Below, piece after piece: positions 14,011 through 27,813 of a stretch of 53,145 nucleotides of DNA (the first letter of the stretch is position 1; the number at the start of each line of letters is the position of its first letter). Origin of the DNA: Planctomycetota bacterium (lineage in GTDB: Bacteria; Pseudomonadota; Gammaproteobacteria; Eutrophobiales; Eutrophobiaceae). The notes below the pieces were generated by a model, which saw nothing but the letters and a program-made list of their open reading frames with translations, did not search any database and was not told the origin of the DNA. The DNA lies in NCBI GenBank assembly GCA_047638675.1, contig JBLIML010000005.1:1-53145 (forward strand), given 5' to 3'. Made by a program: the position numbers and the translations under genes.

Positions 14011-14724
14011 TCAGGCTTTACGCTTCTTAAATCCCAGTCCAGCCAGGCCCAGGCCTAAAAGTGCCAGGGTCACAGGTTCCGGTGCGGAAGTCGTAATATA
14101 TTCATCAAAACGAAGTGAATCGTAGCCCCGACCACCCGCATCAAGATTCTGGATTGCCACCCCTCTGAATGCCATTGTAGATGCGAAAATGAGGTCCCCA
14201 CCCAGTAAAATGCTAATGTCATCTACCAGGGAACCCATGGCGTCTTAGAAAAACAGTCAGGTTGACCCGCCGTTGTTACCAACTATCGTCAAGCCCAATT
14301 CGATGATGTCGTAATAAAATAACAAGGCTACTACTCCCTCACCAATATCATCAATGGTTGTGCCACCTGCGAGTCCGAACACAAAGTCAAAGTCAGTGCC
14401 AAATATTATAGAAGCAACTCCTGTGCTCGCCGCACCACCCGCGTATAACGAAAGTGGACTTGTGGGCAAACCAGAATAAGATTCGAAGCCGGAAACACCT
14501 GGGTCAACGACAGTCAGACCGGCAAAAGTCTCAGCGACGTTTACGCCGTTTCCATCATAAAAAGACGTAGAAGAAGAATTCAAACCACCGAAGTCTTCCA
14601 TAAGTGTCGCCGATGATGTCCCACTGGAGACGGTGATGGGAAGAGAAAGTGCCATCGTGCTCGTCAGAGCAAGAGTCGCGCCCATGGCAACCTTCATAAT
14701 CTTAATTAGAATTTTGTTTTCCAT
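14011..14724 (-). pseudogene. PEP-CTERM-anchored secreted protein interrupted by two in-frame stop codons
   Basis: The upstream ORF (14257-14724) has a signal peptide (MKVAMGATLALTSTMALSLP) and ends at TGA 14257-14259. The downstream ORF (14011-14238) is in the same frame and carries the PEP-CTERM sorting signal PEPVTLALLGLGLAGLGFKKRKA. A second in-frame stop, TAA, lies at 14245-14247. Confidence 0.7.
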
Positions 14725-15798: not shown

Positions 15799-17973
15799 AT
15801 GACAATACAACAAAAAACCTTTTTCATAATTTTGTTCGGATTAGCAAGCACCATCGGCGTTATTTATACAATATCCAAGGGCATTGTAAGCTCAAGCTTT
15901 CAACAATTGGAAAGCAAATACGTGCGGGCAAATACGCAGCGTGCGTTTCAGATATTGGTAAATGAACTGGACCACATGTCTACCTTTGCTCAATCTCAAT
16001 CTGAATTGGAAATGTTTTTTCTAAACCTCGACCAGTCCGATGATAAAAGAATACAGGAAATTCTTGCCGACAGTAGTCCCGCTTTCCAAAGATTCAATCT
16101 CATTGCATTTTTTGATCATAACGGAACTCTTTCATACGGCCATTTTAAAAAAGAATATCAGACTGATTTATATTCCTTGCCTGCAAGTTGGCAGACAAAC
16201 ATGTCTCCCGAACATCCCTTATTTATTCCCAGAGACAATAAAGGCCGTTCAAACGGTTTAATGAAAATGCCTGATGATAGCGCTATTTTTATTAATTCAA
16301 AAATCATCAGAAAAAATACCCTGAATAAGACACCCAATGGAACCCTGATATTGGGCCAGACAATTGAACTAAAAATAATTCAACGCCTGGTTCAAGTATC
16401 AAAAACATCAATGAACCTGCTTACCTTCGATGAAGCCTTGTCTGAAAAAAGTAATAGCGACTTTTATAAATCACTGAGCATCAACGCTCCTTTCCAGGTG
16501 CGCATTATTGACGAACAAACAATTAATGGTTTTCTTCTTTTAAAAGACATTCGCAATCAGCCAGCTTTTGTATTGAAAATTTCCTTCCCAAGAGATATTT
16601 ATCTACAAGGTGAAATCACCCTGGATTATTACACAAATTTATTAGTGTTAATCGGCATTGCAACTATTTTATTTGTTCTTCTGTTAATGAATCAACTGGT
16701 GTTATCCAGGCTAAATCGCCTCAGTCGCGGAATAAAAAAAGTACAGGCAAGCGGTGACCTAAAAAATCACATAGAAATCAATGGTGATGATGAATTCAAT
16801 TACCTGGCCAGGATATTTAATGAGTTGCTTGATAGTTTGCAATTATCGCGAGAGGAATTGGAAATACAAATTGACGAGCGAATTACCGTAGAAAAAGAAA
16901 TTCGTAAAAGCCATAGTCTTTATAATCAAGCTGAATTAATCGGCAAACTCGGACATTGGGAATGGGATTTGACCAATGACCGTCTTATTTCGTGTTCTGA
17001 ACAATTTGCCCATATATATGATCTGACAATTGATGAGGCAGTGATCCGTTTTTTCAGTGAGAATAAATTACTTGAGTCAGTTCACGAAGATGATAGAGCA
17101 CACGTAAAAGCTCGATTGAAGGAAGCCTTTGATAATAAACAATCTCTGAATTTAGAATATAGAATAATCTCTTCGTCAGGAGAGCTCCGTCATGTCCATC
17201 AAATGGGCCGGGTACTACTAGACCGCAATAATACTACGGAAATATCCGTTGGCACCCTGCAGGATATAACTAAACAAAAAGAAGCCCAGGATAAACTCGA
17301 GTCGTATCAAAATAAACTTCGATTGTTAATGTCTGAAATAGTACTGGTTGAAGAAAAGGAACGGCGGCGTATTTCGATAGAGTTGCATGACAATACCATA
17401 CAAAATCTAGGCCTGTCCAAATTTAGATTGTCAGTATTTAAAAACACTTTAGGCAAAGACACACCGACGATTATATTGGACCAAGTTATTAAAACAATTG
17501 ACAAGGCAATTAAGGATATTCGCAATCTAATTTTTGAGTTAAGTCCACCGATACTTTATGAATTAGGGTTCGTGCCGGCAATTGAGTGGTTGGCAGAAAA
17601 GTTTTATTTGGAGAGAGGCCTGGTTTGCACAGTAAAAGATGACGGAGAAAATAAACTTCTTGATGTTACTACCAGTGTTATGTTATTTCAGATCATACGA
17701 GAGTTGCTGCTTAATATAGTCAAGCACGCAAAAGCAGACCATGCGATCATCACCATTTATTGTGTTGAGAAACGAATCAAGATTGAAGTGAGCGATGATG
17801 GCATTGGTTTCGATATTTCCTCAATGGAAAAATCCATTGTCGTACCACAAGGATATGGTCTATTCAGCATCAGGGAAAGATTGAGTACGCTGGGAGAGAA
17901 GCTTGTAATAGAATCAAATCGCGGATCTGGTACAAAGATTAGCTTTGCTGCACCACTTACACCGACAGACTGA
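15799..17973 (+). CDS. Sensor histidine kinase (large extracytoplasmic sensor, HAMP, PAS, HisKA_3, HATPase_c)
   Basis: Two TM segments (FFIILFGLASTIGVIYTI and LLVLIGIATILFVLLLMNQLVL) bracket a region of about 250 aa. PAS block GHWEWDL...EYRIISSSGELRHVH. H-box RRRISIELHDNTIQNL (NarX/DegS type). ATPase blocks DDGIGFD and GYGLFSIRERL...GSGTKISF. Confidence 0.9.
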   Translation: MTIQQKTFFIILFGLASTIGVIYTISKGIVSSSFQQLESKYVRANTQRAFQILVNELDHMSTFAQSQSELEMFFLNLDQSDDKRIQEILADSSPAFQRFNLIAFFDHNGTLSYGHFKKEYQTDLYSLPASWQTNMSPEHPLFIPRDNKGRSNGLMKMPDDSAIFINSKIIRKNTLNKTPNGTLILGQTIELKIIQRLVQVSKTSMNLLTFDEALSEKSNSDFYKSLSINAPFQVRIIDEQTINGFLLLKDIRNQPAFVLKISFPRDIYLQGEITLDYYTNLLVLIGIATILFVLLLMNQLVLSRLNRLSRGIKKVQASGDLKNHIEINGDDEFNYLARIFNELLDSLQLSREELEIQIDERITVEKEIRKSHSLYNQAELIGKLGHWEWDLTNDRLISCSEQFAHIYDLTIDEAVIRFFSENKLLESVHEDDRAHVKARLKEAFDNKQSLNLEYRIISSSGELRHVHQMGRVLLDRNNTTEISVGTLQDITKQKEAQDKLESYQNKLRLLMSEIVLVEEKERRRISIELHDNTIQNLGLSKFRLSVFKNTLGKDTPTIILDQVIKTIDKAIKDIRNLIFELSPPILYELGFVPAIEWLAEKFYLERGLVCTVKDDGENKLLDVTTSVMLFQIIRELLLNIVKHAKADHAIITIYCVEKRIKIEVSDDGIGFDISSMEKSIVVPQGYGLFSIRERLSTLGEKLVIESNRGSGTKISFAAPLTPTD

Positions 17974-17981
17974 GATTTTAT

Positions 17982-18635
17982 ATGACCCAACGCATTCTGA
18001 TTGCAGATGACCATCAAATTTTTCGTGAGGGTCTTTGCTCCTTACTAAAAACGCTAGAGGACGTCGAAATATTGGGTGAAGCGGATAACGGTCGATCCCT
18101 GATTGACATGGTCAAAAAATCGCCGCCCGATATGGTTATACTCGACGTGGCTATGCCTGGCATGAACGGTGTTGATGCCGCCAGACAGATAAAAGCCTTC
18201 GACGACAAAATCAAAGTGCTCGCACTTTCCATGCATTCAGATAGCCGATTTGTGAAGCAAATGTTACAGGCAGGGGCATCAGGTTATTTGTTAAAAGATT
18301 GTGCTTTTGAAGAACTGACTCTTGCCATGCAAACCATTGCTAATGAACAAATCTATTTGAGCCCCGGTGTTACCAATCTCGTCGTCAAAGATTACCTCCA
18401 TCACCTCTCAGAGGGTAACACTGCCAGTCCTGAAATATTGACACCACGGGAAAGAGAAACCTTACAATTGCTTGCAGAAGGGAACTCTACTGGCCAAATT
18501 GCAAAATTACTCAATATAAGTAGCAAAACAGTGGAGACCCATCGGCGGCAAATCATGAACAAACTGGCGCTAAAAAGTATTGCGGAATTAACAAAATATG
18601 CCATTCGTGAGGGCATCACCTTGCTGGGTGAATAA
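17982..18635 (+). CDS. NarL/FixJ-family response regulator (REC plus LuxR-type HTH)
   Basis: ILIADDHQIFREGL...MVILDVAMPGMNG receiver domain. C-terminal LTPRERETLQLLAEGNSTGQIAKLLNISSKTVETHRRQIMNKL. Confidence 0.95.
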   Translation: MTQRILIADDHQIFREGLCSLLKTLEDVEILGEADNGRSLIDMVKKSPPDMVILDVAMPGMNGVDAARQIKAFDDKIKVLALSMHSDSRFVKQMLQAGASGYLLKDCAFEELTLAMQTIANEQIYLSPGVTNLVVKDYLHHLSEGNTASPEILTPRERETLQLLAEGNSTGQIAKLLNISSKTVETHRRQIMNKLALKSIAELTKYAIREGITLLGE

Positions 18636-18792: not shown

Positions 18793-19203
18793 ATGCTAAT
18801 GAAAACCACACGTGGATTTACCTTAATTGAACTGATGATCGTTGTTGCGATTATCGCCATAATGGCCGCAGTTGGCTATCCCTCCTATCTAACATCGGTA
18901 ACCAAAGCACGGCGCTCAGATGCACAACAACTTATGCTGGATGTGGTTAATCGAGAAGAACAGGTGTTGATTGACCAACGCACTTATGGCTTTAATTTTA
19001 CTACTTTGGGCATTGTTAAGGAAGATTGGACATGTGTCGCCGCCAACTGCACCAATGACTTTTATACCGTCACCCTGGTTGGAGCTATTACTGATGTCCC
19101 GCCAGTCTATACTGTGACGGCAACTCCCTCTGGCACACAGACCGCTGATGGTGTCCTGACTATCAACAATACGGGTGCCAAAACACCCGCTGACAAGTGG
19201 TAA
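18793..19203 (+). CDS. pilE: Type IV pilin-like protein PilE
   Basis: Class III signal (MLMKTTRG|FTLIELMIVVAIIAIMAAVGYPSY) followed by KARRSDAQQ, typical of PilE. Confidence 0.85.
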   Translation: MLMKTTRGFTLIELMIVVAIIAIMAAVGYPSYLTSVTKARRSDAQQLMLDVVNREEQVLIDQRTYGFNFTTLGIVKEDWTCVAANCTNDFYTVTLVGAITDVPPVYTVTATPSGTQTADGVLTINNTGAKTPADKW

Positions 19204-19207
19204 TTAG

Positions 19208-19771
19208 ATGGCGCGACAGTTACACATTTTATCGGTATTTCCTTTGCCAGGAAAACTAGCCTCCCTTAGACGGAGCAGTGGCTTTACCATAATTGAATTA
19301 CTGATCACGGTTTCAATAGCAGGTACGCTAATGGCGATAGGACTCCCTTCCTTGCAAAATTTTTTATTGACGCAGAAAGTCAGAACGGCGACGTCCGACA
19401 TACATGTTGGTCTGTTACTTGCCCGCAGCGAAGCGATTAAGCGTAATACTGATGTTGAACTCGATAGAAACACAACAAGCTGGACTGGTGGTTGGAACGT
19501 AGAGATTAAGTCAAGCGGTTCCATTATCAGGACACAAGACGCGTTTAACGGCTTAACCATTACTTGTAATACCAATGCTGATGCTGCTGCCGAAGCCTGT
19601 CCCGCAACCGTTGAACTCTCCCGGACTGGACGCCCAACGACCTTTACTGAGTTTCGCGTTTTTGTAAATGGCAATACAAGTATCGCTGCGCGCTGTCTTT
19701 CATTGCGCTTAAGTGGCGTGCCACGCATTACAATGGATACCGATCAAGACAGCAGCGACGGGTGTGACTAA
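19208..19771 (+). CDS. GspH/FimT/FimU-family minor pilin
   Basis: SGFTIIELLITVSIAGTLMAIGLPSLQNFL... prepilin N-terminus followed by a GspH-like body. The leader is unusually long if ATG 19208 is used, so the start is uncertain. Confidence 0.75.
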   Translation: MARQLHILSVFPLPGKLASLRRSSGFTIIELLITVSIAGTLMAIGLPSLQNFLLTQKVRTATSDIHVGLLLARSEAIKRNTDVELDRNTTSWTGGWNVEIKSSGSIIRTQDAFNGLTITCNTNADAAAEACPATVELSRTGRPTTFTEFRVFVNGNTSIAARCLSLRLSGVPRITMDTDQDSSDGCD

Positions 19772-20388
19772 TGAAAAGAACCTTAGTAATACGAACCCAT
19801 TCCGGGTTCTCAATGATAGAAATTTTAATAGCCCTGTTTGTGACACTGATTGGTCTTCTCGGGATCGGGGCCTTACAGGCAAAAGCTCAACAAGCGGAAT
19901 TTGAGTCTTATCAACGGGCTCAGGCCCTGGTGATTCTGTCGGATATTGTAGACCGTGTTAACATCAATCGATCTACCATCGCCTGTTTTGCCATCACCAC
20001 TAACACCACCACGGGCTTGCCATTTCTGGGTGCCACAGGCACAGGTCATCTTGGAACACCTACCTGTGCGGCCAGCACCACGACTTATAACACTCAGGCG
20101 GTTGCCACATTAAATGCCATTGATTCCTTGTTGCTGGGTAGCGCCGAACGATTGTCCGGTGCCAATGTCGGCGCGATGATCGGCGCCAGGGCCTGCCTCT
20201 CTTACGATGCTAGTACCGAATTAAGCGCTGTTGCTGGAACGGGTTATTTCACGGTGGTCATAAGCTGGCAAGCATTGTCTGATTTACCCGTACCCCTTAA
20301 TAAGAACTGTGCTAACACGCTATACGGCGATTTGACAAAACGCCGTGCGATTTCAACCCGTTTTCGCGTGGCCAATTTATTCGGGTAA
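19771..20388 (+). CDS. pilV: Type IV pilus minor pilin PilV
   Basis: HSGFSMIEILIALFVTLIGLLGIGALQAKA...YQRAQA. The start overlaps the previous stop (TAATG at 19769-19773). Confidence 0.85.
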   Translation: MKRTLVIRTHSGFSMIEILIALFVTLIGLLGIGALQAKAQQAEFESYQRAQALVILSDIVDRVNINRSTIACFAITTNTTTGLPFLGATGTGHLGTPTCAASTTTYNTQAVATLNAIDSLLLGSAERLSGANVGAMIGARACLSYDASTELSAVAGTGYFTVVISWQALSDLPVPLNKNCANTLYGDLTKRRAISTRFRVANLFG

Positions 20389-20394
20389 ATAGCT

Positions 20395-21564
20395 ATGATT
20401 ATGGATCTGTATAAAAGTAACCAACAGAGCGGCGTAACACTTGTCGAGCTGTTAGTCGCAATCTCCATTGGTGCCTTCATGATGCTCGGCCTGACAACCA
20501 CCTTTCAAAACTCAAGCAGAGCCCAGCGTGCCCTGGTCAAGTCGAATGAGCTAATAGAAAACGGTCGTTATGCCATCAGCATTTTGTATGAGGATCTGCG
20601 ACATGCTGGTTATTATGGGCATTTTTATAACCTTGGTAACCCGCTGGCGAACTTGCCCGATCCATGTGAGATAGGTAACCTTGCTTCACTAAGAGCTAGC
20701 ATGGCAATCCCCGTGCAAAGCTACACTTCGGCGGATTTGGCCACCGCAGCAGTCATCGCTAGTACCCCTAATACCTGTGCTGGGACATGGTTGACTGCGG
20801 CTAATCTGGCAGTGGGTTCTGACATTCTGGTGATACGCCGTGCCGATACAGCTGTTTTTACCGGTACGCCTAATCCGGGCGAAGTCTATCTACAGTCAAA
20901 TGTCCTTAATGCGAATTTATTGGAGGGTAATATCAGTGCGACGGTTCCTCCCACTTCGCCTGTGCCGACAGTGGGTGCCCCTGGACTTGCCGCTGATAAT
21001 ACGACAACCAATTTACTCAAGTATCCCAGTAAAACCGGCGATGCGACGATAGCAGAGACACGTAGTTTTCATGTTCACGTGTATTTTGTCGCGCCCTGTA
21101 GCTTTGGTAGCGGTGCCAATGGCATATGTGCCGGCGGTGATGATGCTATCCCCACTCTCAAACGTCTGGAGTTGGGTTCAGATGGTTCCGACCCAACAAT
21201 GAATATCGTACCTCTTGTTGAAGGCATCGAATTCATGAAGCTGGAATACGGCATTGATTCGACACCCACTACGACGAATCCCGTCACCGGCTTGCAGGGC
21301 GACGGCATTCCAGACTTTTATGTGCCCAGCGCGAGCACGACCCAACTCCCCATGGCGGTCTCATTCAGAATTCATTTGCTAGTGAGGGCCACAGAGGAGG
21401 CAAGCGGTCATGCCGACACCAAACAATACGTGTTACCGCCAGTGCCGGCGGCACCCACGGTTCCGATCCTGACCACAGCAACCGGCGATAAATTCAAACG
21501 TCATATTTTTACAACCGAGGTACGCCCCATGAACTTAAGCGGGCGAAGAGAGATACCCGAATGA
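20395..21564 (+). CDS. pilW: Type IV pilus minor pilin / assembly protein PilW
   Basis: QSGVTLVELLVAISIGAFMMLGL...ENGRYAISILYEDLRHAGYYG is the PilW signature N-terminus. Confidence 0.8.
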   Translation: MIMDLYKSNQQSGVTLVELLVAISIGAFMMLGLTTTFQNSSRAQRALVKSNELIENGRYAISILYEDLRHAGYYGHFYNLGNPLANLPDPCEIGNLASLRASMAIPVQSYTSADLATAAVIASTPNTCAGTWLTAANLAVGSDILVIRRADTAVFTGTPNPGEVYLQSNVLNANLLEGNISATVPPTSPVPTVGAPGLAADNTTTNLLKYPSKTGDATIAETRSFHVHVYFVAPCSFGSGANGICAGGDDAIPTLKRLELGSDGSDPTMNIVPLVEGIEFMKLEYGIDSTPTTTNPVTGLQGDGIPDFYVPSASTTQLPMAVSFRIHLLVRATEEASGHADTKQYVLPPVPAAPTVPILTTATGDKFKRHIFTTEVRPMNLSGRREIPE

Positions 21565-21995
21565 ATTTAGCCAAAAAACAGAGCGGTACAGTATTGTTCA
21601 TTGCACTGATATTCCTGGTCATCATGACCTTGTACGCTGTTTCTTCTATAAATATGAGCACCACCAACCTGAAAATTGTCGGTAATATGCAAGCCATCAA
21701 AGAGATGGATGCAGATGCCCAGGATGCCATTGAGCAAACACTCAGTGATATGAATCAATTTAGCCTGACCCCCGCTGCCAGTACTGTAAGTGGTGCAATA
21801 GGGTCTGTTGACGTTGCCACCCCAGAATGTATCCAGAGTCGAACCGCTACCGGCTACAGCGCCGTGGCTGGCGACATCATCCCTGAAGACAACACCTGGG
21901 AATTGACGGCAACCGTCAGTGACAGCGTCACAGGTGCAGCTTCAACAATTCATCAAGGCGTGGAAATACGCATGTTGGCAGGTAACTGCCCTTAA
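21561..21995 (+). CDS. pilX: Type IV pilus minor pilin PilX
   Basis: KKQSGTVLFIALIFLVIMTLYAVSSINMSTTNLKIVGNMQ (PilX_N type). ATGA overlap with pilW at 21561-21564. Confidence 0.75.
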   Translation: MNLAKKQSGTVLFIALIFLVIMTLYAVSSINMSTTNLKIVGNMQAIKEMDADAQDAIEQTLSDMNQFSLTPAASTVSGAIGSVDVATPECIQSRTATGYSAVAGDIIPEDNTWELTATVSDSVTGAASTIHQGVEIRMLAGNCP

Positions 21996-22022: not shown

Positions 22023-25000
22023 ATGCGCTATTTTTCAATAATTCAGAAAAATACCCGATTACAGGCATTTCTTACGACCTTGCTGTTAACAGTGTGCGCG
22101 GGCATACCACAGACCTATGCTGATTTTGACCCGGTTAACGATGATACGGACATTTTTCTCTCTAATCCCAATGTGCCCGCTCAGCGCCCGAATATTTTAA
22201 TCTTCCTGGATAACACAGCTAACTGGAACACGGCCTTTGATAATGAAAAAAGCGCTTTGGTAGGTGTTGTTAACAACTTGTCAGATCAATTTAATGTCGG
22301 TCTGTTGATGTTCCCGGAAACTGGCGGTGATAACGATAGCATCGATGGAGCCTATATTCGCTTTGCCGTGCGGCAAATGACGAACGCTAATAAAACCGTT
22401 CTCTCAAACCTGGTAAACGGCCTCAATAAAATAGCCGACAAAGGCAATAACGCCAGTCCGGCACAGGGCATGATTGAAATCCACCGCTATCTGTCCGGCG
22501 GGACTTCGCGTGCCGGTCACGGCAAGGTTAAAACGGATTATGCCAGTAATACTGATGAGCCTGGTGGGCACCCGGCTACCAATGCGGGTTTAGGAGGACA
22601 TGCCCTGCCGGCATCTCCAACCGCCAGTTCTACCTATACCTCGCCCATTGCTGATTCATGTCAAAGTAATTTTATGATTTATATCAGCAATGGTCCGGCC
22701 GGTGAAAATGCTTCTGGATTGTCCGTAGCGGAAGCGGATCTGGCAGCGCAAGGCTACGATACAAGCAGTGTCATTGGCCTGACGCCCAGCGGTCAACAGG
22801 GTAACTGGATGGATGAATGGGCCAAATACATGGCCAATGCGGACGTCAGTCCGCTCGGTGGTAGTCAGAACCTAACCTCGTATGTGGTCGAGGTAGATCC
22901 GGGACTGACAGGTCAGGGCCCGAACATGACTGCACTGATGGAGAGCGTTGCCTTAAATGGTAATGGTGAATATTTTGCCGTATCAAGTGGCAATGCAGGT
23001 ACCGCTATCGTCAATGCCCTGAACCAGATATTTACAGAGATACAGGCAGTAAATAGTGTATTCGCCTCGAGTACCCTGCCTGTCAGTGTCAACGTCCGTG
23101 GCACCAACCTGAATCAGGTATACATCGGTGTGTTCCGACCTGATGAAAACAAAAGTCCACGTTGGTTTGGTAATTTAAAAATGTACCAACTGGGCTTTAA
23201 TACCTCAACCAGTACATTGTTCCTCTCCGATGCGGCAGGCGGCGAGGCGGAAAACCCGGAGACCGGCTTTATCAATTCCAGCGCTCCCAGCTTCTGGACC
23301 ACAGCGAGTACCTACTGGTCTTACCGTACCGCAGATGAAAACGGCGCTGGTGGTTCCTCTGATTTACCTGATGGTGACCTGGTGGAAAAGGGTGGCGCCG
23401 CACAAAATCTGCGACTGGATTTTGCAGCGACGCAAGCGGGTCGCGATTTGTACACCTGCACGGGCGCCTGCACAGATGGCTCGAGCTTATCCTCTACCCC
23501 GTTTGCTACTACCAATACCGATATTACTAATGTCGCGCTTGGATTGGGCAGCACAGCGGTATCTCCTTTAACAGGCTTCGTAACCCAAACCGGCCTTGCC
23601 ATCACCGACACCTTCACCGTTACTTCTGCCAGTACTTCTACAGGAGGTCTCACCACTACCCTGTCGACGGATGCTGTGGGTCAGACGATTACAGCGCTGA
23701 GTTCGAGTAACAGTACGGTTATTACTGCAGCTAATGACGGCTCCATTTCGCAGAGCTTTGATGGTTTAAACCGCGCCACTGGCAACCCCAAAAATCCTGT
23801 AGAAGCCACTATTAATGGTCATGGTTATAGCACGGGCACCGTGGTTACCATCGCTGGTGTCAGTGCCTCTGAATACAACGGTACCTTTAGCATTATCAAA
23901 GTCGATAATAATGTTTTTAAATACGATACAGGTAACAGTAATCCTGCTAATAGCCCGATCTTTGCCAGCGCCACAGCAACGACCACGTCATCCATTCTTA
24001 CCGTTACTGCGCCCGGCCATGGGCTGACGGATCCAGGCACCGATGGGAACATTACACTTACCGGAATCGCGCCGACCGATTATAACGCAACATACAGTAG
24101 CTGGAGTGTGATTGGTGATAATATCTCCATCACCCTGGCATCGCCCCTGGCGTCGATTACGTCCTTTGCTAGCGCAAGAATCATCGGTGGCGCCTCCGTA
24201 GTTGCGATGGCAACTGTACCAAGCCATGGTTATAGCACCAATAATTCTGTCATTATCAATGGTGCCACACAAACTGGCTATAATGGAACGCGTACGATTA
24301 CGGTTATCGACGCTAATAGATTTAGATTCCCCGTTGCCTCTTTAATTGCCGCGGATAACAGCGGTACTGCGAAAGCATTTGTCGGGAATGCCACTGTTAC
24401 GGCCACCGCAACTGCCCATGGCTTCACTAATGGACAAGTTGTCACCATAGCCGGCACTGTCGATACCGGTTACGGTGGGGCCTTCGCTATTTCCAATGCG
24501 ACCGCGAACACTTTTGAATACACTACCCTGGCGCGACCTGCGAACACTGGCAGTCCCGTCACAGTGGCGGCGGGTGTTACAACCACCGCGAGCGCGGTTA
24601 TCCCCGGACATAAATTTGTCGTAGGCGACAATGTGGACTTCAGCGGAGCAACACCCACTGACTATAACCAGACAACTGCCAACATCGACACTGTTGTCGG
24701 CGATACCGTCACCTACTCGGTGGCTCCCGCGACACCAACAGCGGCCACAAGTCCATTTATTGTTAAGCGAACACTCCCAACCGCTTATGCGACCCTCACC
24801 GGACACGGTTATTTATCGTTAGGTCAGATCACAATCCAGGGTGCTGACCAAGGTGGCTATAATAAGAGTGATGCAATTATCACGGTGCTTGATGCCGATA
24901 ACTTTAGATACCTGATCCCGGCTAATGTAAATGCTGATGCCACCGGCACTATTACGGCTTCCATAAAAACGACGACGGCAACGGCGAGAGCAGTGGCACA

Positions 25001-27029
25001 TGGTTTTGCAACAAGCGACGTTGTCTCTATCGCAGGTGCATCGCCAACGGCCTTTAATGGCGCTTCTTTAACTATCACAAAAATAGACGATGATACTTTT
25101 ACCTATACCCTTCCTTCTGCGCAAGGTGATGCCTCCGGCAGTATCCTCGCGGCAAGTGGTACTGGCTCTGCCAGCGCCCGTAGCAACTTGATTGAATGGG
25201 TCAGGGGAGCTGATAACTTTGAAGATGAAAACGCGGATACCACAGTCAGCAGTCCCTACGATATACGCACTTCATCGCATGGTGACGTATTGCACTCACG
25301 TCCGGCGGTGGTCAACTACAATCGACATGGTAACGACGATGACGTCTATATCTTCTACGGTGCTAATGACGGTATCTTTCGTGGTGTAAAGGGAGGCTTT
25401 AATCAAAGCCTTGCCCTCCAACCCTTACCAGGTCATGAGGACTGGGGCTTTATCCCAGAAGAGTTCTTCGGAAGCCTGCAACGCCTGCGTAACAACGAGC
25501 CGACTATCAGTAGCAGCAATAAGAAGGCATATTTTGCCGATGGCACGATTGGTGTGCTGGTAGAAGACAATAGTGGCCCGGGTGGAGCCACTACGCCTGA
25601 CGAAAAACTGGATACAAGCGTTGATAACAACGCCAATCCTGACAGGGTGTTCTTATATGTCTCAATGCGCCGCGGTGGACGCTTCATCTATGCCCTTGAT
25701 GTGAGTGACCCCAGTGATCCCAAGCTATTGTGGAAAAAAAGCAATGCCGATACCGGTTTTGGTGAGTTAGGTCAAACCTGGTCGGCGCCAAGGGTGTTAT
25801 CGCTGGCCATTGACACAGACGGTGCTGGTCTGCTTGATGATGATGACGTGGAGGATGTTGTCATGTTCGGCGCAGGTTATGACCCGACGGTGGAAGATAT
25901 AGACCCAACGACTATCACCGCGGTGAGTTCATCCACAGTCACTGTCGGTGCTTCCACTTATAGCCGCACCATGGGCCGCGGGATTTTTGTTGTCGATGCA
26001 GTCACCGGTACGCCAATCTGGCAGGCAGGTCCAGCGCTTCCCGCCGGCGGCCTTCCAGCACATCCCTATGTCGCAGTAGTTGGGATGGATTATGCCATTC
26101 CATCTGATATTGCTGTGATAACTGACGCCAATGGTTCTATCGATAATCGTGCCTATGTCGGCGATACCGGTGGAAACATATGGCGCGTTGATATGGCTGA
26201 TACCAATGTCAGCAACTGGACCGTGACCAAGTTGGCGTCCGTTGCTGATGTAGATGGTACGCCCGCCCTTGCCGAAGGCATGCGTAAGTTCCTCTTCCCA
26301 CCGGATGTGGTTTATTCCGCTGATGGTTACGACGCCGTACTCATTGGCAGTGGTGATCGTGAACATCCCTTTGATTCTGAGGTCGAAAACCGCTTTTATA
26401 TGTTTAAGGACACGGGCACCTCTCCCGAGGCAGATATCGATACGACAGAAGATAATGATGCCGGTACGACGACTGCAGCCCCCGCCAACCAGCCCACTAT
26501 TGTTGAATCAGATCTGTTTGATGCAACCTTTAATTGTTTGCAAGACGCCAGCGCCTGTGCCACTGACCCAGGTGTTAACGATACAAACGGAGATCTTGTC
26601 GTTGACCAGGCCGATGCGGAAGCAATCATAGCGGCTGGTAGAGGATGGTATATCACCCTCGGTAACGGAGAAAAGGTTGTAGGAAATGCTGTCACGCTAA
26701 ATGCCGTCACCTTTTTTAACACCAACCAGCCCGAATCGACAGCCGATGTTACCGATTGCTCTAGTAATCTGGGTATCGCTCGTCAATATAAAGTGGTGTT
26801 CGATAATGCGACCGCCATTGCGGATGAGAATATCGATGGTTCTACCGACGCTGCGGATCGAAGTAATGTGCACGCTGGTGGTGGCTATCTACCCTCACCG
26901 GTGCCTGTAGTGGTGAAAATAGACGGCAAGGTTCACGTCGGTATTATTTCCGGTGTGGCCGTTGATGAGCCGCCGGGCACACTCCTCGATGCCAGACTCA
27001 GGAAATTCTGGTACAAGGAAATAGAGTAA
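22023..27029 (+). CDS. pilY1: PilY1/PilC-family type IV pilus tip adhesin / biogenesis factor, unusually long at 1668 aa
   Basis: Signal peptide, then an N-terminal vWA-like region (ILIFLDNTANWN). C-terminal PilY1 propeller blocks: GDVLHSRPAVVNY, FYGANDGIFRGV, GGRFIYALDVSDPSDPKLLWK, GQTWSAPRV, VMFGAGYD, AYVGDTGGNIWRVDM, GWYITLGNGEKVVGNAV. RBS aggag lies 8 nt upstream. Confidence 0.9.
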   Translation: MRYFSIIQKNTRLQAFLTTLLLTVCAGIPQTYADFDPVNDDTDIFLSNPNVPAQRPNILIFLDNTANWNTAFDNEKSALVGVVNNLSDQFNVGLLMFPETGGDNDSIDGAYIRFAVRQMTNANKTVLSNLVNGLNKIADKGNNASPAQGMIEIHRYLSGGTSRAGHGKVKTDYASNTDEPGGHPATNAGLGGHALPASPTASSTYTSPIADSCQSNFMIYISNGPAGENASGLSVAEADLAAQGYDTSSVIGLTPSGQQGNWMDEWAKYMANADVSPLGGSQNLTSYVVEVDPGLTGQGPNMTALMESVALNGNGEYFAVSSGNAGTAIVNALNQIFTEIQAVNSVFASSTLPVSVNVRGTNLNQVYIGVFRPDENKSPRWFGNLKMYQLGFNTSTSTLFLSDAAGGEAENPETGFINSSAPSFWTTASTYWSYRTADENGAGGSSDLPDGDLVEKGGAAQNLRLDFAATQAGRDLYTCTGACTDGSSLSSTPFATTNTDITNVALGLGSTAVSPLTGFVTQTGLAITDTFTVTSASTSTGGLTTTLSTDAVGQTITALSSSNSTVITAANDGSISQSFDGLNRATGNPKNPVEATINGHGYSTGTVVTIAGVSASEYNGTFSIIKVDNNVFKYDTGNSNPANSPIFASATATTTSSILTVTAPGHGLTDPGTDGNITLTGIAPTDYNATYSSWSVIGDNISITLASPLASITSFASARIIGGASVVAMATVPSHGYSTNNSVIINGATQTGYNGTRTITVIDANRFRFPVASLIAADNSGTAKAFVGNATVTATATAHGFTNGQVVTIAGTVDTGYGGAFAISNATANTFEYTTLARPANTGSPVTVAAGVTTTASAVIPGHKFVVGDNVDFSGATPTDYNQTTANIDTVVGDTVTYSVAPATPTAATSPFIVKRTLPTAYATLTGHGYLSLGQITIQGADQGGYNKSDAIITVLDADNFRYLIPANVNADATGTITASIKTTTATARAVAHGFATSDVVSIAGASPTAFNGASLTITKIDDDTFTYTLPSAQGDASGSILAASGTGSASARSNLIEWVRGADNFEDENADTTVSSPYDIRTSSHGDVLHSRPAVVNYNRHGNDDDVYIFYGANDGIFRGVKGGFNQSLALQPLPGHEDWGFIPEEFFGSLQRLRNNEPTISSSNKKAYFADGTIGVLVEDNSGPGGATTPDEKLDTSVDNNANPDRVFLYVSMRRGGRFIYALDVSDPSDPKLLWKKSNADTGFGELGQTWSAPRVLSLAIDTDGAGLLDDDDVEDVVMFGAGYDPTVEDIDPTTITAVSSSTVTVGASTYSRTMGRGIFVVDAVTGTPIWQAGPALPAGGLPAHPYVAVVGMDYAIPSDIAVITDANGSIDNRAYVGDTGGNIWRVDMADTNVSNWTVTKLASVADVDGTPALAEGMRKFLFPPDVVYSADGYDAVLIGSGDREHPFDSEVENRFYMFKDTGTSPEADIDTTEDNDAGTTTAAPANQPTIVESDLFDATFNCLQDASACATDPGVNDTNGDLVVDQADAEAIIAAGRGWYITLGNGEKVVGNAVTLNAVTFFNTNQPESTADVTDCSSNLGIARQYKVVFDNATAIADENIDGSTDAADRSNVHAGGGYLPSPVPVVVKIDGKVHVGIISGVAVDEPPGTLLDARLRKFWYKEIE
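23805..25142 (+). repeat. Seven tandem ~65-aa protein repeats inside pilY1 (aa 595-1040)
   Basis: The HG motif recurs at residues 600, 666, 735, 799, 863, 928 and 993. Consensus: A....HG(Y/F)..G..V.I.GA.....YNG....I..V....F.Y. Examples: ATINGHGYSTGTVVTIAGVSASEYNGTFSIIKVDNNVFKY and ARAVAHGFATSDVVSIAGASPTAFNGASLTITKIDDDTFTY. Confidence 0.85.
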
Positions 27030-27036
27030 CAAAGCA

Positions 27037-27546
27037 ATGTCAGCGCTGGAGTTGAATATGACACAAAGATTACTCAGCACAAAAGTGGTGAGAATGATTT
27101 ACGGTAGATCACTCTTTTTACTAGTGGCATTTTGCTTTGTCATAACAAACAACGCTATGGCTACCGCGATGTATAAATGGGTCGACGCCGAGGGTAATAC
27201 AAATTATACGCAGAAGCGCCCAACAGCAGATACTGTATTTACCTCCATTAATCCACCGAGCGAATTTGATTCAGAACGTTCTCAAAAGGATTTGGAGAAA
27301 ACACAAAAATATCTGGGTGATTCGCGCGAACAGCGTCAGAAAAAAGCAGAGGAAAAGCAACGGGCAATTGAGGATAAAGCTATTCAAACTAAAAATTGTG
27401 AACAAGCTAAAAGCAGACTGGCTACCTACACAAAACCCAGAGTGAAATTATTACAAGAAGACGGCAGTCGGGTCAGAGCTACAGAAGAAGTCCGTCAGGC
27501 GCAAATTGCGGAATCTCAGAAATTGATTACAGAGTTTTGCAAGTAG
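27037..27546 (+). CDS. DUF4124-domain protein
   Basis: A signal-like segment followed by MYKWVDAEGNTNYTQKRP, the DUF4124 signature, and a charged coiled C-terminus. The true start may be the internal ATG at 27094 (MIYGRS...). Confidence 0.75.
   Translation: MSALELNMTQRLLSTKVVRMIYGRSLFLLVAFCFVITNNAMATAMYKWVDAEGNTNYTQKRPTADTVFTSINPPSEFDSERSQKDLEKTQKYLGDSREQRQKKAEEKQRAIEDKAIQTKNCEQAKSRLATYTKPRVKLLQEDGSRVRATEEVRQAQIAESQKLITEFCK

Positions 27547-27737: not shown

Positions 27738-27813
<76 letters not shown>

Follow-up and report, generated by a model that had tools for sequence, protein, structure and literature searches.

At the tip of type IVa pili, PilY1 serves as adhesin and mechanosensor, and what a pilus adheres to is believed to depend on the variable N-terminal part of this protein. 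We analyzed a 53,145-nucleotide stretch of DNA (contig JBLIML010000005.1 of GenBank assembly GCA_047638675.1, GTDB class Gammaproteobacteria, order Eutrophobiales; hereafter the window). An open reading frame (ORF) at positions 22023–27029, judged by its sequence, encodes a PilY1 in a fimT/pilV/pilW/pilX operon. The protein carries a 540-residue insert, made up of a Ser/Thr-rich segment and seven small β-barrel repeats (R1–R7), exactly at the junction of its vWA-half and its propeller, just before the LIEWVRG...GDVLHSRPAVV stretch. This seven-barrel insert is an old, clade-typical build and not a peculiarity of the window gene, which is a typical member of its clade. We propose, at roughly even odds (a probability of ∼0.5), that the insert acts at the pilus tip as a tightly linked stalk or arm that bears the retraction force.

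When the full-length protein was scanned, the Pfam family T4P_PilY1 (PF05567) was not picked up; with residues 1041–1668 (628 residues) scanned alone, it scored 32.1 bits against a cut-off of 28.1 bits. A profile of this C-terminal domain matched entry 3HX6, the Pseudomonas aeruginosa PilY1, in a search of the PDB at an E value of 1.9e-8, and the first-blade motif and the calcium-loop region were aligned. We identify the protein as a PilY1 because its C-terminal domain passes the T4P_PilY1 model and matches 3HX6. The LIEWVRGADNFEDEN...GDVLHSRPAVV motif runs from residue 1056 on, after the repeats, which is where an initial annotation of this DNA had placed the start of the C-terminal domain. 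In the calcium-loop region (∼26130–26200), TDANGSIDNRAYVGDTGGNIWRVD aligned to DNNSDGVADYAYAGDLQGNLWRFD of P. aeruginosa PilY1 (D851–D859 type). The loop itself reads DANGSIDNR, compared with DNNSDGVAD in P. aeruginosa; an Arg stands at the last liganding position, and the liganding positions differ.

The gene context is that of a pilus-tip protein. pilY1 is the final large gene of a type IVa pilus minor-pilin cluster, with minor-pilin genes directly upstream on the same strand; to be encoded together with the minor pilins of the tip/priming complex is a trait of the PilY1/PilC tip proteins. P. aeruginosa PilY1 (PA4554; 3HX6) is likewise encoded after minor pilins of the fimT/U-pilV-pilW-pilX type. 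Both proteins combine an N-terminal domain of vWA or vWA-like fold with a C-terminal modified β-propeller, and the GD(I/V)xxSxP first-blade motif and the YxGDxxGNxWRxD calcium-loop region align between them. The two proteins differ at the junction of these parts: P. aeruginosa PilY1, which is ∼1161 residues long, has a 141-residue stretch with the RGD motif and a calcium site there, whereas the window protein has the 540-residue insert. Residues 501–641 of P. aeruginosa PilY1, between the vWA domain and the propeller, form a low-force mechanosensitive, integrin-binding element (PMC11891296), and the insert occupies the corresponding inter-domain place. By reading the sequence of the translated window PilY1, we found no RGD motif in it.

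The insertion point was mapped by comparison with related loci. Eighty loci encoding relatives of the C-terminal domain, one genome per species, were collected, their PilY1 ORFs were reconstructed and the barrels were counted. Residues 440–510 and 1050–1125 of the window protein served as anchors on the two sides of the insert. In 26 repeat-less homologues, most of them 1005–1199 residues long where the gene was complete, the anchors abut within 0–18 residues. Because the anchors abut in these proteins, the insert is delimited to residues 511–1049 (nucleotides 23553–25169). The excess length of the window protein had been attributed in the initial annotation to a module inserted between the vWA-like and propeller domains, and the mapping bears this out.

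The same annotation had described the module as seven diverged repeats with a period of 64–69 residues, and a hidden Markov model (HMM) built from the seven units recovered exactly seven copies; no further copy was found with it in the six-frame translation of the window. Leave-one-out scores of the units ranged from 22.4 to 58.9 bits, whereas 500 shuffles per unit reached 15.3 bits at most. Pairwise identity among the units is 25–35%. The HG dipeptides reported as landmarks hold for the His, found at residues 600, 666, 735, 799, 863, 928 and 993, and fail for one Gly, as residues 863–864 are HK. The limits first given for the module (23805–25142, residues 595–1040) lie slightly inside the domain-level limits (23784–25157, residues 588–1045).

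At the DNA level, no tandem repeat was found in the module, and only a 35-nucleotide core matches between copies, at 63–71%. We conclude that the copies are old because only this core still matches. The view that the duplication is old and that the copies have diverged at the DNA level thus stands; the positional orthology of the repeats and their clade-wide presence on a tree of C-terminal domains agree with it. Recent slippage or an artefact of assembly was considered and ruled out by the lack of a DNA tandem repeat, by the positional orthology and by intact frames in 45 orthologues.

The length of the window protein had first been taken as unusual against the 1000–1200 residues common for PilY1, which implied a rarity that did not hold. 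Complete-gene homologues with at least about 49% identity in the C-terminal domain are all 1582–1776 residues long and carry 5–7 detected barrels in the same place. The survey of homologue length and repeat number that had been suggested as a check thus found similar length to be the norm in this clade. The best C-terminal-domain identity of the window protein among GTDB representatives is 67%. In a neighbour-joining tree of 92 C-terminal domains, all 45 proteins with a long Ser/Thr-rich segment and seven barrels fall in a single clade, here termed 7L. Its sub-clades comprise Magnetococcales, Gammaproteobacteria (including the window protein) and Betaproteobacteria, with lengths of 1590–1875 residues. 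Clades with 3–6 barrels and connections of only ∼9 residues are mixed in the tree with clades that lack repeats, among them Undibacterium, Cupriavidus, Ralstonia and Polaromonas. Some proteins appeared to have six barrels and a "linker" of 150–190 residues; a degenerate first barrel is indicated in these because their total insert length is the same as in the seven-barrel proteins. Among the 150 best-scoring representatives, 143 proteins were newly returned, and 31 of these are PilY1s with 4–7 barrels.

For R1, R2, R5, R6 and R7, the best-matching repeat in most homologues is the one that holds the same position in the array (for R6 and R7, this applies to 20 of 24 homologues). Because the repeats match positionally between homologues, the array predates the split of these lineages. 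Between orthologues, conservation of R1–R6 is largely limited to the family-wide core positions, and the N-terminal half and R7 are more conserved. A neutral or nearly neutral expansion, in which the barrels would be baggage from a phage-like source tolerated at a permissive inter-domain site, would fit a site that tolerates 0, 3, 4, 5, 6 or 7 barrels in different clades and a domain that is a promiscuous insertion in many unrelated proteins. We regard it as very improbable, since the number, order and total length of the barrels are kept across Gammaproteobacteria, Betaproteobacteria and Magnetococcales, with positional orthology and intact frames, and the conservation of R7 equals that of the N-terminal half.

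The same gene, with at least seven barrels, was found at a syntenic locus of a metagenome-assembled genome (GCA_054184285.1, locus L002, 1916–6761), where the order of the minor-pilin genes is the same as in the window. At this locus pilY1 is split into four pieces by 10-N scaffold gaps, one of which falls within the array of barrels, and each piece is annotated as a partial protein of its own. Such fragmentation may conceal the seven-barrel architecture in databases.

The fold of one repeat was modelled with AlphaFold2 (AF2). With a 68-row alignment of repeats from the window protein and from other proteins as input, the single-domain model of R7 was all-β, with a mean predicted local distance difference test score (pLDDT) of 81. 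In a Foldseek search of the PDB with this model, the top matches were the endosialidase barrels of phi92 (4hiz) and K1F (1v0e) and that of 3gvk (template modelling (TM) score 0.64–0.73, 28–32% identity, probability 1.0). E1 FCCH domains (TM score 0.65–0.75) and the N-terminal barrels of V-ATPase A/B subunits ranked next. A profile of the repeat alignment matched endosialidases in the PDB at E values of 0.005–0.08. The barrel of K1F gp17 (residues 440–492) aligned to the repeat profile with 15.8 bits, and the HG, V.F, G and F.V landmarks were in register.

E1_FCCH (PF16190) reached 32.4 bits summed over the module against a cut-off of 29.5 bits, with no single stretch passing it. The repeats share the E1_FCCH fold class without belonging to that family, and the protein has no E1 adenylation or catalytic-cysteine domain. 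End_beta_barrel (PF12195) scored 20–22 bits on R7 against a curated cut-off of 35 bits, and homologues reached 28–30 bits. The repeats are a family related to End_beta_barrel and not members of it, yet the endosialidase barrels are the closest of the solved structures by fold and by profile. The NCBIfam scan gave no match to the module, and no dedicated Pfam or NCBIfam model matches the repeat. In the literature searched, we found no paper linking PilY1 with FCCH, endosialidase or the Pfam barrel names. The domain is hence not one already catalogued as a common PilY1 insertion.

A profile search against the PDB also returned transcription activator-like (TAL) effectors, with E values down to 1e-20. 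These values are sums of 15–24 matches of ∼2 bits each to one 17-residue motif. The TAL repeat has 34 residues and is α-helical, whereas the period here is 64–69 residues and the model is all-β, and a TAL identity was rejected. The repeat motif HG(F/L)xxGxxVxIAG (HGFxxGxxVTIAG) mimics the TAL core HGLTPxQVVAIA, which is a pitfall for automatic annotation of this domain.

The barrel family is large and occurs mostly in phage virion proteins, and also in giant surface proteins. On many phages, this type of domain adorns the exterior of tails, baseplates and connectors. A search of a word-indexed database with the module matched 105 proteins, all of ≤802 residues, among them phage head-closure (P22 gp10-like), baseplate-wedge/J-like and tail proteins with 1–3 copies as insertions. 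The module matched phrog_9998, a phage protein family, at E 6e-28 in four stretches, which cover profile positions ∼40–113 of 401, that is, the barrel-bearing part only. It also matched phrog_584 (major tail protein) over the corresponding N-terminal part. A HMMER scan of 1.84 billion cluster representatives (clusters at 50% identity) returned 11,530 proteins at E ≤ 1e-3, of which 3,958 were at E ≤ 1e-10. The highest copy number was 19 barrels, in one protein of 4855 residues, and PA14, CotH and LTD are among the domains that co-occur with the barrel. In BFVD, matches with TM scores of 0.8–0.86 were cyanophage structural proteins, baseplate J-like proteins, tail sheath, tail protein I and short tail fibres. 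A likeness to small phage virion barrels and to the E1 FCCH-like fold had been suggested in the initial annotation, and the Foldseek, E1_FCCH, phrog_9998 and BFVD matches agree with it.

Two phage systems are close to the insert in build. The endosialidase barrels of K1F gp17 and phi92 share the HG...V.F/I...G...F.(Y/V) pattern with the repeats. Each occurs in a single copy, nested in the catalytic sialidase propeller of a tailspike, and binds polysialic acid; in contrast, the window PilY1 has seven tandem copies outside its propeller and no catalytic domain. The E1 FCCH-type decoration domain on siphophage tail tube proteins (gp39 of NBD2, gp13 of MED16) belongs to the same class of small six-stranded barrels on the outside of an extracellular filament (PMC13576161). 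By cryo-electron microscopy (2026) this domain faces outward and alternates with Ig-like decoration domains within the same family (PMC13576161). Each tail tube subunit contributes a single copy, and the helical assembly sets these copies in an array, whereas the window protein has seven in one chain.

These relatives raise the possibility that the barrels are primarily ligand-binding, acting as an array that would bind polysaccharides (exopolysaccharide of the cell itself or of its neighbours, or host or particle glycans) with low affinity and many sites. The closest solved relatives are the endosialidase barrels, and one of the three sites for polysialic acid lies on the K1F barrel (PMC12632334). 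The K1F site residues S460 and S468 align with positions 24 and 32 of the profile, within the best-conserved A-G...Y-N-G motif, which is present in 6 of the 7 window repeats and across orthologues; at the aligned position, however, K1F has Ser in place of Asn. The H, G and YNG residues that are conserved sit at turns and may be purely structural, and orthologues show little conservation of R1–R6 outside the core positions. The family occurs chiefly in virion proteins that face outward and in giant surface proteins with PA14, CotH and LTD, and carbohydrate-binding decoration domains on phage particles would offer an analogy; a ligand, however, is known for the endosialidase members only. Myxococcus xanthus PilY1.1 and PilY1.2 have been suggested to bind exopolysaccharide via an added domain (PMC13190605). 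Weighing these points, we consider a primary lectin function possible, if doubtful, and the leading alternative to a stalk. An extended form of it, in which the H...A-G...Y-N-G surface would be a general glycan pocket, the whole family lectin-like, and the seven barrels, braced by the β-rich segment, a fixed-geometry, phage-type receptor-binding arm that serves as a multivalent polysaccharide hook, seems unlikely to us.

The first part of the insert (residues 511–587) is a Ser/Thr-rich segment with 41% Ser plus Thr. It had been described as a low-complexity linker; the Ser/Thr richness was correct, and the notion of a floppy linker is not, since both the length and the pattern of the segment are conserved and β-structure is predicted for it. 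Its length is 75–96 residues in 7L proteins with all seven barrels detected, and the total insert measures 529–641 residues. In 28 aligned orthologues its pattern is kept, with about seven [VI]TxL[ST]-like motifs spaced ∼10 residues apart. In an AF2 model of residues 1–1060, the segment forms 11 short strands with pLDDT 65–89. The number of motifs, about seven when counted by eye, equals the number of barrels. We considered that the segment might be an eighth, degenerate barrel, and rejected this at an hhalign probability of 0.1%. A scaling of segment length with barrel number, one strand per barrel, found no support, as the clades with 3–6 barrels have connections of ∼9 residues; for the 7L clade such a pairing is improbable.

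In the same model, the barrels are predicted at pLDDT values of about 75–91, the last and first strands of adjacent barrels lie 2–4 residues apart, and a strand at residues 978–989 is continuous from R6 into R7. The mean pLDDT of the model is 76 and its predicted TM score (pTM) 0.39. With this low pTM, the model gives no confident fixed bend between domains and does not fix their relative orientation.

The N-terminal domain had been labelled vWA-like, and this label was upheld by fold and not by sequence methods. In a Foldseek search, the domain model matched vWF A1/A3 and integrin I domains with probability 1.0 (TM scores of 0.6–0.7, normalised to the target), and also the vWA module of the Streptococcus sanguinis pilin PilB. 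By sequence (Pfam, NCBIfam and PDB profile), a vWA domain could not be demonstrated in the window protein; it is barely detectable in its relatives, with Pfam VWA found in 1 of 10 orthologues at E 4e-4. At the position of the MIDAS (metal ion-dependent adhesion site; residues 63–67, nucleotides 22209–22223), the protein reads D63-N-T-A-N67 instead of DxSxS, and these residues are invariant or nearly so among orthologues. Going by this DNTAN sequence, the metal dependence of the vWA-like head may differ.

Residues 343–402 (23049–23228) are the most conserved stretch of the N-terminal half, with many invariant columns (AVNSVFAS..RWFGNLKMY / AVNSVFASSTLPVSVNVRGTNLNQVYIGVFRPD..K.PRWFGNLKMY). Their pLDDT is <60 in the AF2 model, which was made without the C-terminal domain. 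This stretch could belong to the propeller or pack on it, which would alter the topology of the insert. One can then picture a closed side arm, in which the β-rich segment would run back along the barrels to give a spike shaped like a hairpin that would exit the PilY1 body and return to it at the same point, with R1 distal and the vWA head beside the propeller. Such a model would accord with the two ends of the insert, which abut in repeat-less homologues, with a segment that is conserved in length and pattern and predicted to be β-structured and not disordered, and with residues 343–402, which behave as though their partner C-terminal domain were missing from the model. The match between about seven periodic motifs and the barrel number would also fit, with the reservation that the motifs were counted by eye. 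The clades with 3–6 barrels lack the segment and have ∼9 residues there, so that it is not a general requirement of barrel arrays, and within 7L the barrel number does not vary, which leaves nothing against which segment length could be correlated. On balance, this side-arm topology appears quite improbable.

In the reading we prefer, the seven barrels, joined by only 2–4 residues, would form a tightly linked rod with a length on the order of 15–20 nm, a figure that is our own estimate for seven ∼60-residue barrels. The C-terminal β-propeller docks on the minor pilins, and the rod would hold the adhesive part of PilY1 at a distance from the pilus tip. By analogy with the tandem β-domain stalks of other adhesins, the retraction force would then run through the rod. 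The core-only conservation of R1–R6 and the higher conservation of R7 fit a structural function of most barrels and a role of R7 as an interface. The barrels may also bind surface glycans weakly and multivalently, as a likely secondary role. What the analysis demonstrates is the parts, their fold class, where the insert sits, how old it is and that it is conserved throughout the clade; from these we infer the rod and its load-bearing function.

Tandem β-domain adhesin stalks consist of small all-β domains set head to tail with very short linkers, between anchoring and adhesive parts, and in this they resemble the insert. The copy number of Ig-like/Big, Rib and SHIRT arrays often varies between strains. 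The barrels of the insert belong to another fold family, and their number is fixed at seven across bacterial classes.

Several points weigh against a load-bearing stalk. If residues 343–402 pack on the propeller, as they may from the way they are modelled, the insert would be a side arm with adjacent ends and not an in-line spacer. Other PilY1 clades have 3–6 barrels with a connection of ∼9 residues at each end, which is awkward for a linear spacer. The best-conserved barrel motif coincides with the ligand site of the K1F barrel and favours binding over pure spacing. The 7L members come almost all from metagenome-assembled genomes. Finally, the shape and the length of the rod are putative.

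According to a 2026 survey, vWFA and DUF4114 were the only conserved domains so far identified in the N-terminal parts of PilY1 proteins (PMC13190605). In M. xanthus, the paralogues PilY1.1 and PilY1.2 were diversified by the addition of a putative sugar-binding domain to the conserved propeller (PMC13190605), which is comparable to the present case; there, however, the addition is DUF4114, which does not form a tandem array and stands in another place. The β-rich segment plus seven endosialidase/FCCH-type barrels at the N/C junction represents a third widespread PilY1 build beside vWFA and DUF4114. The clade that carries it consists mostly of uncultured bacteria, and the build is an undescribed variant of a known protein family. 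It (i) is fixed across Gammaproteobacteria, Betaproteobacteria and Magnetococcales, and together with sister clades that have 3–6 barrels or none amounts to a deletion series made by nature, in which effects of tip geometry, reach and load path on adhesion and surface sensing can be compared; and (ii) connects the pilus tip with a phage-associated domain family of very large size, for which no curated model exists and whose function is known in the endosialidases only.

The coordinates of the pilY1 gene, its domains and its neighbours are collected in Table 1.

Table 1. Features of the pilY1 locus in the window, in order of position (residue numbers refer to the PilY1 protein).
Feature	Position	Strand	Remark
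Pilin genes of the cluster overall, upstream of pilY1	18793–21995	+	
ComP_DUS/N_methyl pilin, head of the cluster	18793–19203	+	
GspH/FimT-like pilin	19208–19771	+	
PilV-like pilin (N_methyl + Tt1218-like)	19771–20388	+	
PilW (PF16074)	20395–21564	+	
PilX (PilX_N)	21561–21995	+	
pilY1 ORF, 1668 residues plus stop	22023–27029	+	C-terminal part matches Pfam T4P_PilY1 and P. aeruginosa PilY1 3HX6
Probable type I signal peptide (residues 1–33, ...GIPQTYA/DFDP, cleavage at the slash)	22023–22121	+	Read from sequence; AF2 helix at residues 10–26
vWA-like α/β domain (residues ∼55–345)	22185–23057	+	AF2 pLDDT mostly 80–93, alternating strand/helix; Foldseek
Remainder of N-terminal half (residues 346–510), ends at insertion point	23058–23552	+	
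Ser/Thr-rich, β-rich segment (residues 511–587), first part of insert	23553–23783	+	
Barrel repeat R1 (residues 588–653)	23784–23981	+	Leave-one-out 51.0 bits
Barrel repeat R2 (residues 654–722), most diverged copy, 3-residue insertion after HGLT	23982–24188	+	Leave-one-out 22.4 bits
Barrel repeat R3 (residues 723–786)	24189–24380	+	Leave-one-out 54.2 bits
Barrel repeat R4 (residues 787–850)	24381–24572	+	Leave-one-out 43.7 bits
Barrel repeat R5 (residues 851–915), HK in place of HG	24573–24767	+	Leave-one-out 40.7 bits
Barrel repeat R6 (residues 916–980)	24768–24962	+	Same-position best match in 20/24 homologues
Barrel repeat R7 (residues 981–1045), most conserved, adjoins propeller	24963–25157	+	AF2 pLDDT 81; Foldseek with endosialidase barrels
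C-terminal PilY1 β-propeller (residues 1046–1668), with LIEWVRG, GDVLHSRPAVV and variant calcium loop TDANGSIDNRAYVGDTGGNIWRVD	25158–27026	+	
DUF4124 protein, after pilY1	27037–27546		
tRNA-Thr(CGT)	27738–27813	−	

Downstream of pilY1 lie the DUF4124 protein gene, the tRNA-Thr gene and a gene for a glutaredoxin-like protein, followed by ispH-lspA-ileS on the other strand. No pilY2- or pilE-like gene was found after pilY1, where the DUF4124 protein and tRNA-Thr(CGT) genes stand instead.

Directly upstream of the pilin genes, positions 15799–18635 encode a CHASE4-HAMP-PAS-HisKA_3 sensor kinase and an adjacent response regulator, which by the look of its sequence is probably of the NarL/LuxR type. 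The position of this pair recalls that of fimS-algR upstream of fimU-pilVWXY1 in Pseudomonas, whereas the family differs. The stretch has the lowest GC content of the window (0.376). Between the sensor kinase and a gene for a TonB-dependent receptor lies a 155-residue ORF (14257–14724, minus strand) with an N-terminal signal-like sequence and a Gly/Ser/Thr-rich composition, without a Pfam match.

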